In this document: positions 37,670 to 46,826 of the stretch, in pieces
Layout: the number at the start of each line of letters is the position of its first letter
Position numbering within the stretch: the first letter of the stretch is position 1
NCBI GenBank assembly: GCA_965263295.1
Contig: OZ253665.1
Coordinates: forward strand, 1,280,001-1,344,000
DNA from: Spirochaetia bacterium
GTDB lineage: Bacteria > Spirochaetota > Spirochaetia > SP-2023
Length of the DNA stretch: 64,000 bases
Reading direction: 5' to 3'
Notes under the pieces: model-generated
The model's database searches: none
What the model was told of the DNA's origin: nothing
Seen by the model: only the letters and a program-made list of their open reading frames with translations
Position numbers and translations under genes: made by a program

Positions 37670-39991
37670 ATGTCGGATATAAATATTCCAGGGATCACCA
37701 AGAGCAAGTACCAAACCGACAAAATTATTGCCGGCTTGGTCAAGACGAAACAGATTGAACTCGACCGAATGCAGGCAAGTCGCGACGACTTGGAGCTGAA
37801 GCGCAAAGTTTGGCAAAGTATCAATATCTTGACCATGAAGCTGGAAGATAATGTTCGCAATCTGTATAATGTCGACAGTCCCTTTCGGCAGAAACTTTCT
37901 ACCAGCTCCGACAAGTCGGTACTTACAGTTACGAGCAACCGCCAAGCAGAGAGCGGTGAGCACATCGTACGCGTGCTGCAAACGGCAAAAGCAGACAGCC
38001 TGCATTCTGATGAAATTGCCAACGACTATCAGGTTTCCAACGGAAACTATACTTTTGGCACTGGTAAGGAAACAAAATCTTTCACTTTTAACGGCGGCAC
38101 ACTGCAACAGTTTGTTGCAGTCGCTAATCGTCAATTAAATGGTATTGCACATTTTAATGTGGTCAACAGCCGCGGCCAAAAACAAGTATTAGTTTTTGAG
38201 TCTGCCAAGAGCGGGGTAGAAAACCACCTCACCTTTGATGACCAAGGAAAAAAGCTGGCTCTGGACATCGGCTTGATTCTCGATGCCAATTCTTTACATG
38301 TCGATCTCCTGCAGGAGTCGCTAATTAGTCCTTTCAATGAACTTTCCAATTATAGTTTTTCCGCAAGCAAAAACGAAGTCAGCATTGATCCGGGGCAGGA
38401 GCTGCGCATCAGTTTGCCCAATAACTACACCGTGCGTTCTGGCAGTGTGATGCGCTATGATATCCTGGCCCCATCCGACAAGTTGCCCCCGATCAGTAAC
38501 ACTCCCGACAATCCAATTTTCTCTGGCGACGTGGACGGCGGGCCCGCGCCGCAAGCAGAGCAAGCAGAGCAAGCAGAGCAAGCAGAGCAAGCAGGGCAAG
38601 CAGAACAGCCAGAACAAGCGCAGCTGCCTGAAGACGTCAAAAATCGCCCACGGCCTAGTGGCGACGCCAGTGAAATGCCGCCGCCTTCTGCCACTATTGA
38701 TAATAACAGTATGGATAATGCAGGCAGCGACGAGGCGGTTACTGACATAGACTCAGGCGTAGTGCCGGCGAACCAAGGAAAGGATTCACAAGAGCAGGCT
38801 CTAGTCACAAACGACCCCAAAGATTTTCAAGAAGGCCAAGACAATTCGGCACAAACCTCAAACAGCAAAACCACAGATCGGCAGGATGACCCAATTAGAC
38901 CCAGCAACCCGGATTTACTCAAGTCAACAGCGAACTTCTACTTTGTACAGCAGGGCCGGCGCATCGCTGCCGGCCGCCGCGAAGGTGAAGTTCAAGCCAT
39001 TGGCGTGGCACACGAAGAGATACTGAGCCTGCACAGTATTGATGGCTTGCGTAATATCAGTGAAGTCGTAATACGCAATCCCAACCCCGGCCGCAAGATT
39101 ATTATACGCAACCTGCGCTTTGAGAATGCTGGAATTAAAACTGATTATCTCGCAACTCACCCTATCAGCACAGCGCAAAATGCAATAATTTCTTATTTGG
39201 GCGTAGAGATGGAACGTCCCAGTAACAACGTTGATGACCTCCTGCCCGGCCTAAGCCTGAACCTGAAGCAAGCCAAACCAGAAGAAGAGATTTTGATCCG
39301 CACCGAACCTGCTTACGAGGCTATAACCCAAAGAGTTGCCGATTTTGTAAATTCCTATAACGATTTGATGACACAGCTTAACATCGTCAGCACGAACAAT
39401 GAGATAGTTATTCGAGAAAAAACGGCCTTTACGGACAAGCAACGCGAAGAAGCGCGCGAAGTCTTGGGACTGCTGCAGAGTGACAGCAACGTGGCCAATC
39501 TAAAATACCGCCTGACAGGCAGCGTTGCCGATGGCTATCCCACCGGACTGGGCACTCAAACTCTTTCTGATGTCGGGATTTCGACAAACCTCTCTGGCCT
39601 CCAGGGAAGTATCTATCAGAACAAATTACGCGGTTACCTGGAATTTGATACAGAAATTTTCCAAAACGCCATGGAAGAGAACTTTGAAATGGTCAAAGAT
39701 ATCTTTGGCCGTGACAACGATGGCGATTACACCGTGGATAGCGGCAGCGCATTGGAAGTTCAGCGCATAAGTAATGGCTACACTCAAGCCGGCGGACCGA
39801 TTCCCCACAAAGTCAAGGACTTGGAGCGAAATATTGATGATAGCGAACGCCGTATTTCTGATTACAAAAATTATCTGCTTGATTATGAGGATGAACTAAA
39901 GCTTAAGTATGGCCGTATGGAAGGAACCTTGAACCAGTTAGAACGGCAACAACAGTCGCTAAAAAACTTCAGCGATTCTATGAACCGCTAA
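37670..39991 (+). CDS. fliD: Flagellar filament capping protein FliD (HAP2)
   Basis: MSDINIPG N-terminus, AQNAIISYLGVEMERPSNNVDDLLPGLSLNL, FVNSYN, LSDVGIST, C-terminal KYGRMEGTLNQLERQQQSL. Confidence 0.92.
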   Translation: MSDINIPGITKSKYQTDKIIAGLVKTKQIELDRMQASRDDLELKRKVWQSINILTMKLEDNVRNLYNVDSPFRQKLSTSSDKSVLTVTSNRQAESGEHIVRVLQTAKADSLHSDEIANDYQVSNGNYTFGTGKETKSFTFNGGTLQQFVAVANRQLNGIAHFNVVNSRGQKQVLVFESAKSGVENHLTFDDQGKKLALDIGLILDANSLHVDLLQESLISPFNELSNYSFSASKNEVSIDPGQELRISLPNNYTVRSGSVMRYDILAPSDKLPPISNTPDNPIFSGDVDGGPAPQAEQAEQAEQAEQAGQAEQPEQAQLPEDVKNRPRPSGDASEMPPPSATIDNNSMDNAGSDEAVTDIDSGVVPANQGKDSQEQALVTNDPKDFQEGQDNSAQTSNSKTTDRQDDPIRPSNPDLLKSTANFYFVQQGRRIAAGRREGEVQAIGVAHEEILSLHSIDGLRNISEVVIRNPNPGRKIIIRNLRFENAGIKTDYLATHPISTAQNAIISYLGVEMERPSNNVDDLLPGLSLNLKQAKPEEEILIRTEPAYEAITQRVADFVNSYNDLMTQLNIVSTNNEIVIREKTAFTDKQREEAREVLGLLQSDSNVANLKYRLTGSVADGYPTGLGTQTLSDVGISTNLSGLQGSIYQNKLRGYLEFDTEIFQNAMEENFEMVKDIFGRDNDGDYTVDSGSALEVQRISNGYTQAGGPIPHKVKDLERNIDDSERRISDYKNYLLDYEDELKLKYGRMEGTLNQLERQQQSLKNFSDSMNR
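38552..38623 (+). repeat. 9-bp tandem repeat in fliD (QAE)n
   Basis: CAAGCAGAG x4 perfect, followed by four degenerate units. Confidence 0.9.
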
Positions 39992-41798: not shown

Positions 41799-42030
41799 AA
41801 GAGATTGTCTCTGAGCTCTGATAAATCTGCTCCTTCGCCCTATAAATCGACATAGAATCAACAAAATGATCGACATAAACGGAGTAAAACTCGGACGTGA
41901 GTAATAAATTATGCCGCAATATCAGGAGTCACATTCGACGAAACATGACAATGTAGCCCTAACCGTATATTGGGGTCAATATACTCGTGCGTCCGGTTTT
42001 GAAAGCCTCCGGCAGAAAAATCCGGGCGAA

Positions 42031-42744
42031 ATGTTGCGAAGGCAGCTCCTACGCCTGGCACTGCTGGGAGTACTGCTCGTTGCTGCTTGCCAAAGCGCCG
42101 CCATTCGGCCAAGAGCGCCAAGTATGTCAAGTGCGGCAAATTCGTCAAGCGCACCCGGCAACTTAAAAAACACTCGCCAAACTTACGCGCCCCAAACCAC
42201 AGAAACAGAAGTGCCCCAAACAAAAACCAAATCCTTTACGCCTCAATCCCCAGAGATTACTCTTGCCAAGCCGGCAGGGCCGGCGGCAGAAACAACCGAA
42301 ACCGCAACAACCGTCCTTGACAAGGAAGAGACAAAGTCGAGGCACCCGTCTGGTCTGCTCGGTCGCTATGAAGTTTTTAACGCCGTTGCAATCGGGACTT
42401 CCAGACTTGGCCAGATCAAGCCTGGCGAATATTACTGGGGCAGTTTTGTGGTTACGGCAGAACGCAAATTACGCTTTTTTGTCGACGCAAAGCTACAGCA
42501 AAAATACCAAAGCTACTTTACCGAGCGAGACTTAAAAACGGCTAATTTTAGTATTTGCGGAGAGCTGCCGGCGAGCGGAGACCTGAGCCGCCTGTATTTT
42601 ACAACCCCGCGCCAGTCCGGCTTTTTATTCAGCGGCTCCATCCGGAGCCGCAAAGGTATGACTAACCTAGTACCCCTTTACTACCAGGGGCGCTTAGTCC
42701 GCGTCAAATTCACCAAGCGCCCGCTGCAATTAGGCCGGCAATAA
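42031..42744 (+). CDS. Hypothetical lipoprotein
   Basis: MLRRQLLRLALLGVLLVAAC lipoprotein signal, Thr/Pro-rich linker, then a beta-rich C-terminus; the open frame begins at 41911. Confidence 0.7.
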   Translation: MLRRQLLRLALLGVLLVAACQSAAIRPRAPSMSSAANSSSAPGNLKNTRQTYAPQTTETEVPQTKTKSFTPQSPEITLAKPAGPAAETTETATTVLDKEETKSRHPSGLLGRYEVFNAVAIGTSRLGQIKPGEYYWGSFVVTAERKLRFFVDAKLQQKYQSYFTERDLKTANFSICGELPASGDLSRLYFTTPRQSGFLFSGSIRSRKGMTNLVPLYYQGRLVRVKFTKRPLQLGRQ

Positions 42745-42770
42745 CCGGCAGCCAGCCTCCCAGACTTTGT

Positions 42771-42868
42771 CGTTTTCTTTAAATCCAAATCCCTTTTTCC
42801 AGCAAACGGCCAATACGTTTGGACATGGCCAAGGGGTCGGCAATAAGCAGACCGGCGGCCAGCTGGGC
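42771..42868 (-). repeat. Direct repeat, distal copy: duplicated htpG 3' end (98 bp)
   Basis: Identical to 43644-43741 by direct comparison. Confidence 0.95.
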
Positions 42869-42876
42869 TAGCATCT

Positions 42877-43515
42877 CTAAAAAAAATAGGTTATGGGGTA
42901 CACAAGAGCCTGGTAGAGTGTAAATTGAAAATGTCCTTCAAAGAACAGAGGAGCAGCCAGCCTAGTAAAGATCAGCCTATAACTGGAGAGTAATACAAGC
43001 CAAATCACGAGCGTAATTAAAGTTTTCTTAAAAAGGCCAACAACTGTTTGGTCTGCAATTTCATTAGCAACTCCCACTGAAGATCGTCCCGTGATCCAAA
43101 AGCCCAATCGACTCCCAAAAGAGTTAGCTAGTCTTATTTCAGATTCTTGATAAGCTTCATCATAGATTTTATCTCTAAGGTACTCTTTAAGGTTAAATCG
43201 ATAAACAATAATAAATTTTAAAGTAAGAGGAGTATTACGGATGAATGAGACAAGGCATGAAACCACATAGGAAAGATACAAACTACAGGCCCAATACTTC
43301 GCAGCCGACTCGGAGAAGTAAAAGACAGCCCAACATGCCAAGAAACCAATCAGACTGATTATAATCCCAACAATGCCTTTTATGATGGAAACCTGAATCT
43401 CTTTCCAGACTTGAGATGAAGCCTCGGTGATCCCCTGTTCTATCCTGTTTTCGATTAAGGCATTAACTCCTAGCCTGATGCCGTAAATGGCAACAGGCAC
43501 AAGTATCTGAATCAC
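42877..43515 (-). CDS. Hypothetical membrane protein (AT-rich islet cargo)
   Basis: 212-aa ORF with about 3-4 hydrophobic segments, located between the two direct repeats. Confidence 0.75.
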   Translation of the reverse strand: MIQILVPVAIYGIRLGVNALIENRIEQGITEASSQVWKEIQVSIIKGIVGIIISLIGFLACWAVFYFSESAAKYWACSLYLSYVVSCLVSFIRNTPLTLKFIIVYRFNLKEYLRDKIYDEAYQESEIRLANSFGSRLGFWITGRSSVGVANEIADQTVVGLFKKTLITLVIWLVLLSSYRLIFTRLAAPLFFEGHFQFTLYQALVYPITYFF

Positions 43516-43643
43516 GTCAATTTTCCCCCATGATCTTACCCCAGAGAGACCTTAGCAAAATTTTCAGAGAAATGAAATTAGCATTTTATTATAACCAACC
43601 GAAGATGCACAGCTACCAAAACCATACAATCCCCTGATTTTGC

Positions 43644-43741
43644 CGTTTTCTTTAAATCCAAATCCCTTTTTCCAGCAAACGGCCAATACGTTTGGACATG
43701 GCCAAGGGGTCGGCAATAAGCAGACCGGCGGCCAGCTGGGC
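43644..43741 (-). repeat. Direct repeat, in-gene copy: htpG 3' end (98 bp)
   Basis: Identical to 42771-42868. Confidence 0.95.
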
Positions 43742-45592
43742 CTGTTCCAGTAAAAGGTGGGCAACATCACTAATGTCGGCATCGGCTGAAGTGGTAATGC
43801 GCTCGTGCAGTCTCTGAACAATCGTATGGTCTGCGTTGATTTCCAAAATGGGCTTGGCCGCTGGAGCCTCCTGCCCCATGGCCCTCATCATTTGTTGCAA
43901 CTGCGCGGAAGGGTCGTTTTGGTCATCAATCACACAGGCCGGCGATTCCGTCAGACGCAATGAAAGCGTGACGTCCTTTACCTCATTCTGCAATACTTCT
44001 TTTAGCTTTTCGAGCAACTTACCATACTCTTTGCTCTTTGACTCCTGTTCTTTGTCGCTCCCCTCATCCTTTAGTTCGTCCGTGCTGCCTGCTCGATTGA
44101 CTCCCTTAATCGGCAAGTGCTTGTCGTCGAACTTGTAAGGTCCCAATTGGGAAGCAATAATCTCGTCGATCTCATCATCGAGAATTAAAACCTCAAGGCC
44201 CTTCTTTTTGTAGGCTTCTAGCAATGGAGAATTTTGCAACTGTTCGGCTTTGTGACCCGTAATATAATAAATGCTTTGCTGGGCGTCCTTCATGCGCTGA
44301 CAATATTCTTGCAGGGAAGTCCAGCCCTCGGCACCTTCCTTGCCCACGGTCACGGTGGAGCGAAAACGGATCAACTGCTGTAACTCTTCGCGATGCTCAT
44401 AATCACTGTACAAACCTTCCTTCAGCGGTCGGTTGTACTGTTCAATAAACTTGATATATTTTTCTTTGTCGTTTTTAGCCAGCAGGGCAAACTCACCCAG
44501 CAATTTCTTGACCGATGCCTTGCGAATCTGCTGCAATATGCGATTCTGTTGCAGGATTTCGCGGCTGACATTCAAAGGTAAATCTTCAGAATCAATAATA
44601 CCGCGGACAAAACGCAAGTAGACCGGCAGAAACTCTCGGTTGTCGTCACTGATAAATACCCGCCGGACATAAAGTTTGAGGCCAGAGCGGTAATCCGCTT
44701 GATACATGTCAAAGGGCGCTTTCTCCGGCACAAAGAACAGCGAAGTATACTCCAGCGTCCCCTCAGCCTGGGTATGGATCGTCTGCCAAGGCTCACAAGT
44801 ATCGTGGGCCAGGCTCTGAAAGAATTCCTTGTATTCTTCTTCTGCAATCTCCGATTTAGGGCGCTTCCACAGGGCTGAAGCGCTGTTGCACTGCTCGTCC
44901 TTGCATTCTTTGCCGTCCTTCTTTTCGCCTTTCTCGTCATATTGATCCTGATAACTCTTAAGAAAGATGGGGAAGGCCACATGGTTGGAGTACTTTTGAA
45001 TCACGCGCTCCAGACTCCAACGGGTGTTAAAACCTTCGCTGCCCTCGCGACCTTGGGCATCTTCGTTGAAATGCAGGGTAACTGTAGTACCGTGGTCCTC
45101 GCGCTCCGCTTCTGTCAATGTGTACTCTTCACTGCCATCGCTAATCCACTGGTATGCCTTCTCGCAGAGGGCTCTCTTCGTCAATACCTCTACCTTGTCG
45201 GCCACCATGAAAGCCGAGTAGAAACCCACGCCAAATTGACCAATTAAATTGGAATCCTTCTTCTGATCCTCGCCGAGAGAACTAAGGAACTTCTTAGTTC
45301 CGCTGCTGGCGACAGTCCCGAGATTCTCCGCCAGGTCCTCTTCATCCATGCCAATGCCATTGTCGATCACCTGTAGCTGCTTGCCATCCTCACTGAGTTC
45401 AATTTCAATTTTCGGATTGAATTCAAGACTTTTATAGGCCTCGTCTGTCAACGTCAGGTATTTAAGCTTGTCGATCGCATCGGAAGAGTTCGAAATGAGT
45501 TCGCGTAAAAAAATCTCGCGGTTTGAATAAAGTGAGTGGATCACTAAGTCTAAAATCTGTTTGACTTCGGTTTTAAACTTGCGTTTTCCCAT
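43652..45592 (-). CDS. htpG: Molecular chaperone HtpG (Hsp90)
   Basis: HSLYSNREIFLRELISNSSDA, DNGIGM, NLGTVASSGT, IGQFGVGFYS, DSEDLPLNVSREILQ. Confidence 0.98.
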   Translation of the reverse strand: MGKRKFKTEVKQILDLVIHSLYSNREIFLRELISNSSDAIDKLKYLTLTDEAYKSLEFNPKIEIELSEDGKQLQVIDNGIGMDEEDLAENLGTVASSGTKKFLSSLGEDQKKDSNLIGQFGVGFYSAFMVADKVEVLTKRALCEKAYQWISDGSEEYTLTEAEREDHGTTVTLHFNEDAQGREGSEGFNTRWSLERVIQKYSNHVAFPIFLKSYQDQYDEKGEKKDGKECKDEQCNSASALWKRPKSEIAEEEYKEFFQSLAHDTCEPWQTIHTQAEGTLEYTSLFFVPEKAPFDMYQADYRSGLKLYVRRVFISDDNREFLPVYLRFVRGIIDSEDLPLNVSREILQQNRILQQIRKASVKKLLGEFALLAKNDKEKYIKFIEQYNRPLKEGLYSDYEHREELQQLIRFRSTVTVGKEGAEGWTSLQEYCQRMKDAQQSIYYITGHKAEQLQNSPLLEAYKKKGLEVLILDDEIDEIIASQLGPYKFDDKHLPIKGVNRAGSTDELKDEGSDKEQESKSKEYGKLLEKLKEVLQNEVKDVTLSLRLTESPACVIDDQNDPSAQLQQMMRAMGQEAPAAKPILEINADHTIVQRLHERITTSADADISDVAHLLLEQAQLAAGLLIADPLAMSKRIGRLLEKGIWI

Positions 45593-45779
45593 AAATATTT
45601 CCTTCGTTTGCTCTAGTTTGGAATAAAAGTAAACAATTCATTGCCCGACGGCTAGAAAAATTTTACAGAAACGGCACTTTCGCGGATCAAGCGGACGCTA
45701 AGCCGGATTAAATAGCTTGCTTAAAATTCCAAGATAATTTACGATAAAGTATAAATTGCAACAGGAACGACAACACTAC

Positions 45780-46826
45780 ATGGAAAGACGCAAATTAGGC
45801 AGCTCCGATTTACAAGTCAGCAAAATCTGCCTGGGGACAATGACTTGGGGTTATCAAAACAGCGAAGCCGACGCTCACGCGCAAATGGACTACGCATTAG
45901 ATCGCGGGGTAAACTTCTGGGATACTGCGGAGCTTTACGCCGTGCCGCCATCTGCCGAAAGTTACGGCAAAACCGAAAGCTATATTGGGAAGTGGTTCGC
46001 CCAAACAGGTCGGCGCAAGGACGTTATCCTGGCCAGTAAAGTCGGCGGTTCAGGGCCGCAGTGGATTCGCACCGGCCGCGAGGGCTACACGCCTGAAGGC
46101 ATCCGCGAGGCCCTAGACAACAGCCTCAGGCGTTTACAGACAGACTACATTGACCTTTACCAGCTGCACTGGCCGCAGCGTCAGGTGCCCAAATTTGGCC
46201 TGCACGACTTTGAACCTTCCTGGCACAAAGACGATGATCGCCTAGAAGAAACCCTGGCCACTCTGGGCCAGCTAGTCGCCGCGGGCAAGATCCGCCATGT
46301 CGGCCTTTCGAATGAAACACCCTGGGGCGTCATGCGCTGTCTTGAACTCCAACGCCGCAATCCCGCTACATTGCCGCGCATCCAGAGTGTGCAAAATGCC
46401 TACAGCCTCGTAAACCGCATTGCCGACATCCACCTCTCGGAAGTTTTGCTGCGCGAACGGGTGTCCCTACTGCCGTATTCACCCCTGGCTGGCGGTCTTC
46501 TGAGTGGCAAATACCAAGGGGGGCAAAAACCGCAGGGAGCTCGTTTTACCACCTGGGGAGCCAGCCGCATGTCGCGCTACCTCAATTCGGACACCGATGC
46601 CGCTGTCAGCAATTATGTCTCTTTAGCTAAAGAATTTGGCATCAGTTCGGCAAGCCTGGCCAATGCGTTTGTCAACGATCGGCCTTTTGTCGCCAGCAAT
46701 ATCATCGGGGCAAGTACTATGGCCCAGCTTGAGGAAAATATCGACTCTGCCGAGCTGTGTCTCAGCAAAGAACTATTGGCCCGAATTGAAGAAATTCATT
46801 TGCGGCGGCCCAACCCTTCCGTTTAA
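45780..46826 (+). CDS. NADP(H)-dependent aldo-keto reductase (Tas-like)
   Basis: ICLGTMTWG, DTAELY, SLRRLQTDYIDLYQLHWPQR, GKIRHVGLSNETPWG, YSPLAGGLLSGKY. Confidence 0.93.
   Translation: MERRKLGSSDLQVSKICLGTMTWGYQNSEADAHAQMDYALDRGVNFWDTAELYAVPPSAESYGKTESYIGKWFAQTGRRKDVILASKVGGSGPQWIRTGREGYTPEGIREALDNSLRRLQTDYIDLYQLHWPQRQVPKFGLHDFEPSWHKDDDRLEETLATLGQLVAAGKIRHVGLSNETPWGVMRCLELQRRNPATLPRIQSVQNAYSLVNRIADIHLSEVLLRERVSLLPYSPLAGGLLSGKYQGGQKPQGARFTTWGASRMSRYLNSDTDAAVSNYVSLAKEFGISSASLANAFVNDRPFVASNIIGASTMAQLEENIDSAELCLSKELLARIEEIHLRRPNPSV

Follow-up and report, generated by a model that had tools for sequence, protein, structure and literature searches.

The window, that is, the whole 64-kb stretch of a spirochete genome that was analysed, contains an intact htpG (Hsp90) gene whose 3' end is present twice, with a single AT-rich gene, hereafter the cargo gene, lying between the copies. 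The locus is composed of the following features, given in window coordinates.

41911..42744, plus strand: convergent neighbour gene, 277 aa, no Pfam family (open reading frame; Pfam)
42759..42868, minus strand: distal (displaced) 110-bp target copy, 98 bp exact, three differences in the outer 12 bases (repeat comparison)
42779..42874, minus strand: possible 31-codon frame into the displaced HtpG tail (translation)
42869..43631, no strand: unique inserted DNA, 763 bp, 39% GC (absent from the empty-site contig)
42877..43515, minus strand: cargo gene, 212 aa, all-helical product, GTG start (open reading frame; starts of homologues match; model pLDDT 88.5)
43516..43631, minus strand: putative leader of the cargo gene, 116 bp (read from the sequence)
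43632..43741, minus strand: proximal 110-bp target copy, outer 12 bases fit the empty-site strain (repeat comparison; empty-site joint 42747 to 43632)
43652..45592, minus strand: htpG, 646 aa, intact, ending in the proximal copy (open reading frame; Pfam HSP90, E 3e-120)

The duplicated htpG end and its insert

Comparison of the window with itself reconfirmed the perfect duplication of the htpG end described in an initial annotation: positions 42771-42868 and 43644-43741 are identical, letter for letter, over 98 bp. With 12 outer bases, nine of which match, a 110-bp direct repeat is obtained (42759-42868 and 43632-43741; 97% identity, three mismatches, copies spaced by 873 bp). Read on the minus strand, this repeat comprises the 29 final codons of htpG, the stop codon, and 20 bases downstream. 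While the 98-bp core reported earlier stands, the remainder, which had been taken for an imperfect extension, belongs to the target. A strain with an empty site (see below) has one full 110-bp copy, and the target is therefore 110 bp, not 98 bp, long, leaving a unique insert of 763 bp. As had been noted, the DNA between the exact copies (775 bp) is AT-richer than the genome (39.5% versus 49.4% GC) and encodes one 212-aa protein in the orientation of htpG, both genes being on the minus strand. The 110-bp repeat is confined to this place, having passed a two-copy filter in the genome self-comparison, and no other copy of the 763-bp insert was found in the genome, a single contig of 2.41 Mb. The insert lacks terminal inverted repeats, and its one gene matches no integrase or transposase family in Pfam or NCBIfam. 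No tRNA gene is present in the 64-kb window, and no Rfam family in 41800-45800. The convergent gene at 41911..42744, whose product appears lipoprotein-like from a reading of its N-terminus, is the immediate neighbour of the one target copy in the strain with the empty site. At 38533-38631, the window also contains a tandem 9-bp repeat (Ala-Glu-Gln) within a long acidic, proline-rich stretch of a 773-aa gene whose product, by reading, resembles a flagellar cap protein.

The cargo gene lies on the same strand as htpG and ends with its stop codon eight bases before the distal copy. Its GTG start is preceded, eight bases upstream, by GGGGGA, which may constitute a good ribosome site, and a TATAAT hexamer is present in the leader at 43593-43588. 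There was no -35 match in the leader at scan threshold, no minus-strand promoter was called, and no terminator-like site was detected by the scan between htpG and the cargo gene; the promoter and terminator scan scored no better than shuffled sequence. Since no terminator separates the cargo gene from htpG, read-through from htpG is plausible. Two bases after the cargo stop codon, an ATG opens a 31-codon frame that continues in frame into the displaced HtpG tail and whose product can be aligned to the last part of the solved C-terminal domain of HtpG (1sf8). This frame is probably due to chance; a search of titles and abstract openings yielded no relevant report on HtpG tail peptides.

Contigs and unitigs from four of eight listed public runs were compared at the locus, with run X6 giving no coverage of the site. 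In the source-sample run (X1), the 98-bp unitig had a depth of 107, with flanks at 55 and 68 and the insert unitig (835 bases, both ends overlapping the repeat) at 50. The same unitigs were present at 99% identity or more in a run from a second study (X3), which thus contains both copies and the insert. The insert is not amplified relative to its flanks, although a minor circle could escape contigs. A perfect two-copy repeat may be created by faulty assembly, and no single contig or unitig in the runs compared spans both copies; however, with a repeat unitig at about twice the depth of the flanks and an insert joined at both ends in two studies, the repeat is real, and the probability of an artefact is close to negligible.

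An empty allele, which the initial annotation had proposed to look for, was found in a run from a third study (X5). A single contig of 2849 bases, at depth 2, carries one 110-bp copy and no cargo gene; in it, position 42747 is joined to 43632 by a five-letter stretch identical to the five letters that the window has ahead of its distal copy. The filled and empty alleles differ by a net 873 bp and by a 6-bp indel just outside the repeat. Compared with this one depth-2 contig, no host DNA was lost at insertion, and the target was duplicated; htpG remains intact and its displaced end lies at the far flank, as had been surmised. As seen in the same contig, the insertion is polymorphic within the species. 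The empty-site strain is otherwise ca. 98.3% identical to the window (83 differences in 4826 aligned bases, or 1.7%).

The empty strain's outer 12 bases aligned to the proximal version and differ from the distal one at three places. Forty of 87 differences between the strains were itemised, those within 12 bases of the ends of aligned pieces not being among them. Among these listed differences, six more fall in the flank beside the distal copy, within 37 bases (42663-42699), and the distal copy together with this flank has nine substitutions in 108 bases versus 1.9 expected at 1.7% (Poisson P ~1e-4). The 98 exact bases carry no allele signal, the chance of zero difference at 1.7% being 0.19. 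Two alleles appear to meet at the distal htpG copy, and the empty strain does not look like a simple pop-out of the allele in the window. Differences from the empty strain also cluster at 41958-41976, which indicates that mosaic patches are common between these strains and that the flank could have been replaced after insertion.

In three genus-mates (89-94% complete), HtpG is 81-84% identical, but the gene order around htpG differs from that in the window and in each of the three (L022-L024). None of them has a match to the cargo gene or a duplicated htpG end, and other genes lie behind htpG. Relatives carrying the same gene in the same place without the repeat, which according to the initial annotation would speak for vertical inheritance and a local duplication, were therefore not found among the three.

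The cargo protein and its family

The cargo gene is at the 4th GC percentile of the 1593 open reading frames. Its product had been called an orphan; an HMMER search revealed 34 distant homologues of 143-246 aa (20-34% identity), most of them full-length. A word-index protein search returned only the cargo protein itself and, with the alignment as query, three relatives; no longer forms of the protein were found by this search, which is a weak test. None of ten homologues or clusters looked up had a name, and matches in the ESM Atlas were below 0.9 and all nameless. The predicted structure is all helical (pLDDT 88.5), with two to four hydrophobic segments in ten family members. There was no Foldseek match to the model at E 0.001 in PDB or BFVD, and the best structural match (VIA Z 7.5) was to generic helical bundles. 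With the defence models of PADLOC-DB 2.0.0, the cargo protein matched no family at E 0.1, and nine PADLOC families each matched only one of 32 family members. Pfam and NCBIfam gave no match for the cargo protein and single-member matches only across the family. The idea that the cargo is anti-phage received no direct support from the PADLOC comparison.

The family profile had weak matches in seven of 400 other genomes of the phylum, six of them in one genus. Two of these matches, checked by HHalign, had probabilities of 95% and 68%, and two carry an N-terminal DUF1232 domain; one DUF1232-bearing protein aligned with the cargo family at 95% over 181 columns. In DUF1232 (PF06803) proteins from a different genus within the class (G223, G342, and others), it is the C-terminal 180-200 residues that align with the cargo family, whereas the cargo protein has no DUF1232 domain and is 16% identical to them. 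Fusions of DUF1232 to a cargo-like domain, 313-408 aa long, were observed in a same-class genus (L032-L037). A weaker homologue from that genus, a stand-alone protein of 209 aa, is encoded next to a WYL-domain regulator. No relevant report on DUF1232/YkvA function was found among titles and abstract openings.

Four metagenome loci contain a homologue, and the gene is AT-rich there too (28% GC versus 41-43% for flanking genes; L058, L060), its neighbours being either a DUF3944 gene or a pair of genes, one HTH and one DUF4230. At none of the four, three of which are only 1.5-3.2 kb long, does it lie beside htpG or between long flanking repeats, and no homologues were found in viral contigs. An itinerant accessory gene would show such a pattern. 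Judged from sequence, the cargo is most likely an accessory inner-membrane protein, which would be expressed by read-through from htpG or from its own leader. Neighbours of the WYL and HTH types point only faintly to defence; that the protein has a role in stress or phage defence is our guess, and we would put more weight against it than behind it.

Sister sites in the genome and in genus-mates

Genome self-comparison gave 16 isolated two-copy direct repeats, and a more sensitive scan gave 14. Six of the latter pairs were counted as five sites, two of them being pieces of one, and eight were set aside. Among those set aside, six were pieces of 80-89% identity that resemble gene remnants (one was read as an SDR fragment), one was a 324-bp pair at 82%, and one was a 480-bp pair common to two full-length paralogues. 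These AT-rich paralogues, of 517 and 480 aa, are 95% alike over the last 480 bp (genome contig 1930806-1939257) and flank proS-like and recF-like housekeeping genes, 6.9 kb apart. The five sites share the same anatomy, with duplications of 76, 92, 110, 585, and ca. 690 bp, while their targets and cargo are unrelated. The four sites other than htpG are, in genome contig coordinates:

1834400-1836062: 3' end of a POT transporter gene, duplication of 92 bp (93%); cargo, an alpha/beta hydrolase gene on the opposite strand
2093766-2095358: 3' end of a class I fumarase gene, duplication of 76 bp (95%); cargo, an SDR gene on the opposite strand
1956071-1958247: 3' half of a TauE gene and 199 downstream bases, duplication of 585 bp (96%); cargo, a 139-aa gene, 34% GC, no Pfam family
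157165-157853 and 160447-160691: 5' half of an endonuclease/exonuclease/phosphatase gene, duplication of ca. 690 bp; cargo, TauD and TauE family genes, 38-40% GC

At the last site, the repeats of 44 and 210 bp are pieces of one duplication, whose displaced copy lost 444 bp between 9-base direct repeats. The fumarase repeat ends exactly at the stop codon; an in-frame ATG precedes the displaced copy there, as it does at htpG. Of the six cargo genes, four rank among the bottom 5% for GC content. The five inserts are free of restriction genes and of terminal inverted repeats (best 5-7 of 14, random P 0.59-0.99), and they have no shared ends. Across the ten inner and ten outer boundaries, no word of 4 to 6 letters was enriched (P 0.58-1.0), and AGCT/CTAG, which had seemed to recur at the junctions, was without significance.

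Differences between the two copies were most informative at the TauE site. Of eight substitutions in 386 coding bases, seven are synonymous, as against 29% expected at random, and the 199 non-coding bases have none; the displaced copy has a 12-base and a 1-base deletion. The two copies look like working alleles of two strains rather than a working gene and a decaying fresh copy. At the fumarase and POT sites, two of four coding differences each change a residue, which also fits decay. Mismatches cluster at the repeat edges at three sites.

The genus-mates have no synteny at the four sister loci and hence afford no empty-site comparison there. A similar repeat filter applied to 63 genus-mate stretches (ca. 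1.25 Mb) gave 13 pairs, five or six of which look like the same footprint; these are counts from single stretches, not genome-wide copy numbers. The examples are:

G003, L024:15267-17772: 265-bp duplication of the 3' end of a DUF4469/HU-like gene; cargo, a 29%-GC pair of GmrSD_N and HEPN genes
G001, L103:6726-15059, L110:8559-13580, and L111:183-3338: candidate duplications of 598, 538, and 697 bp, respectively
G002, L089:8910-11447: candidate 60-bp duplication

The cargo in G003 is defence-like. The contents of the G001 and G002 candidates include a sugar-transport-like block, genes that by reading are type III methyltransferase-like, and an HTH block.

Origin of the insertion

The initial annotation had suggested that htpG is a dedicated integration site or cassette slot, with the repeats as attL and attR. 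Four unrelated further targets, the lack of a common motif, and a genome with only Xer-like recombinases speak against this. Two tyrosine recombinase genes (PF00589) are present, both more than 400 kb from the locus; by reading, one follows an ftsZ-like gene and the other precedes cmk- and rpsA-like genes, and both look like chromosomal Xer genes. Neither a serine resolvase (PF00239) nor an IS1634-family transposase was found in the genome (one contig, 92.6% marker completeness). No report of htpG as attB or integration site was found, the literature searched being thin in subscription journals. A long duplication lying wholly inside a gene breaks it, so that the targeting of gene ends needs no site specificity; according to the available part of PMC2853133, selection for a surviving target gene favours overlap with a gene end. 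We conclude that htpG is not special and is not an att site.

A footprint of this kind is well defined in other bacteria. It was reportedly first described by Nobusato et al. in 2000. As far as the available parts of the papers cited here go, it is known as 'insertion with long target duplication' (Furuta, Abe and Kobayashi 2010, PMC2853133), most published cases being from naturally competent species. In common with those cases, the insert at htpG is small (763 bp, less than 20 kb), low in GC, and free of mobility genes; the direct repeat is unique, exceeds 30 bp, spans a stop or start codon such that the target gene survives, and is single at the empty site of a conspecific strain. The published inserts contain restriction or modification genes, whereas here the cargo is a membrane protein gene, and at the four sister sites it is a hydrolase gene, an SDR gene, a TauD and TauE pair, and a gene for a family-less protein. 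A further difference is that the copies can here be read as alleles of two strains. No relevant report of such insertions in spirochetes was found. The locus thus shows a known structural footprint, to be filed outside the restriction-modification subclass, and gives evidence of neither a novel integration site nor a novel type of element.

We favour, as the probable explanation, a strain-variable gene gain in which DNA from a relative was captured by a RecA-dependent single crossover; on this reading, the gain at htpG would be recent. Of the two origins offered in the initial annotation, a homology-driven single crossover fits best, while the remnant of a larger element is disfavoured, no trace of an integrase being present in the 763 bp. 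The donor DNA would have come from a related strain in which the last 110 bases around the htpG stop codon were joined to one foreign gene, and would have entered the cell most likely by natural transformation. A RecA crossover within the 98 shared bases of the htpG tail, either with a re-circularised fragment, in which case a circular intermediate would be formed and one crossover would suffice, or with a fragment already carrying both copies, would leave htpG whole, the cargo gene behind it, and the recipient's htpG end displaced. The donor's outer end would then lie beside htpG and the recipient's at the far side, an assignment of the donor copy that we infer. Direct observation covers the duplicated htpG end with its insert, the empty site, the occurrence of further such inserts at unrelated targets, and the absence of dedicated enzymes; the synonymous pattern at TauE, which suggests two strain alleles, favours capture from a relative as well. 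The genome has recA, one comEC-family gene, and two dprA-family genes, which may allow natural competence but do not prove it; profiles of comEC and dprA, which are widespread, match 10 and 11 of 14 control genomes. Neither a donor allele (htpG and cargo gene without a distal copy) nor a circle was seen in the contigs of the runs compared. The cargo gene would first have been joined to an htpG end by an illegitimate joint.

There are experimental parallels. In E. coli, re-circularised DNA with partial homology produced duplications of 109-950 bp by a single crossover (PMC3240628, available part); as here, a homologous piece was duplicated around foreign DNA with no dedicated recombinase, but in a laboratory conjugation construct and at a frequency of ca. 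5e-9, while the present case is natural. Homology-facilitated illegitimate recombination, which is RecA-dependent and known from competent species, likewise brings in foreign DNA by one homologous anchor (PMC3240628, PMC5361080, available parts). In that process, the gain is usually offset by a host deletion of similar size, whereas at htpG no host DNA was lost and the anchor was duplicated. Any microhomology of 3-10 bp at the illegitimate joint would be hidden inside the repeat.

A different source of the same structure is copying in place: after fork breakage or stalling, or after a restriction cut, synthesis would have moved to a foreign template and come back ca. 110 bases behind. Both new joints would then need no donor already carrying the gene, double-strand breaks have been proposed to give rise to the footprint (PMC2853133, available part), and 98 identical bases with mismatches at repeat edges at three sites are as expected. 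Allele differences would, however, have to arise later, by mutation or replacement of the flank: the seven of eight synonymous changes at TauE and the mosaic allele at the distal htpG copy need this extra event, and none of the five inserts has a restriction gene. We regard copying in place as unlikely, though deserving of attention. Less probable still, in our judgement, is that the insert is what remains of an integrase island whose attB was the htpG 3' end and which has since been reduced to one gene. Attachment sites in the ends of protein-coding genes lead to the same outcome, a restored gene with its displaced end at the far flank. The anatomy at htpG matches, and a 97% repeat could outlast an internal deletion. 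Set against this are an insert with no integrase trace, a genome in which the two tyrosine recombinases are Xer-like and PF00239 is absent, no tRNA or Rfam family at the site, no report of htpG as attB, and no core common to the five sites, whose unrelated targets would require five lost integrases. The tRNA cases of such gene-end islands are covered in the available part of PMC2853133.

It is also conceivable that the gene is old at this place and that crossing over between the repeats later removed it from the empty strain. An exact 98-bp repeat is a substrate for deletion, and a single empty contig gives no direction. Yet excision by recombination within the 98 identical bases should retain the distal version of the outer 12 bases. 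The empty strain fits the proximal version instead and is therefore best read as never filled; with the cargo gene AT-rich and not found in any of the three genus-mates, we consider loss very unlikely. The remaining possibility, a non-autonomous element moved in trans by a transposase of the IS1634/IS1549 type, draws on the direct repeats of 8-514 bp left by these elements, a range like that seen here (PMC2266710, available part), but is highly improbable, as the genome has no transposase of this family and the five inserts have neither terminal inverted repeats nor shared ends.

Beyond RecA-mediated capture as such, within this genus an 873-bp circle, consisting of the gene and its own landing site, might pop out by RecA, spread by transformation, and re-insert behind htpG, where heat-shock transcription would drive a membrane-protein family that is possibly a new defence effector. 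This extension is speculative and we hold it to be distinctly unlikely; PMC2853133 itself states that experiments supporting release and re-entry of such inserts are lacking. As an added twist, the displaced tail, if translated as a 31-residue HtpG C-terminal piece, could act on the chaperone dimer.

The footprint is known while its mechanism is unsettled, and the htpG locus is a clear natural example of it, represented in public runs by both the filled and the empty allele. What the locus adds is an empty allele against which donor and recipient ends can be told apart, and non-restriction cargo at five sites of one genome. The occurrence of such cargo at the sister sites, in the genome and in the genus, argues that the cargo's own nuclease is dispensable. 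The locus also defines a new family of small membrane proteins, as yet without a name.
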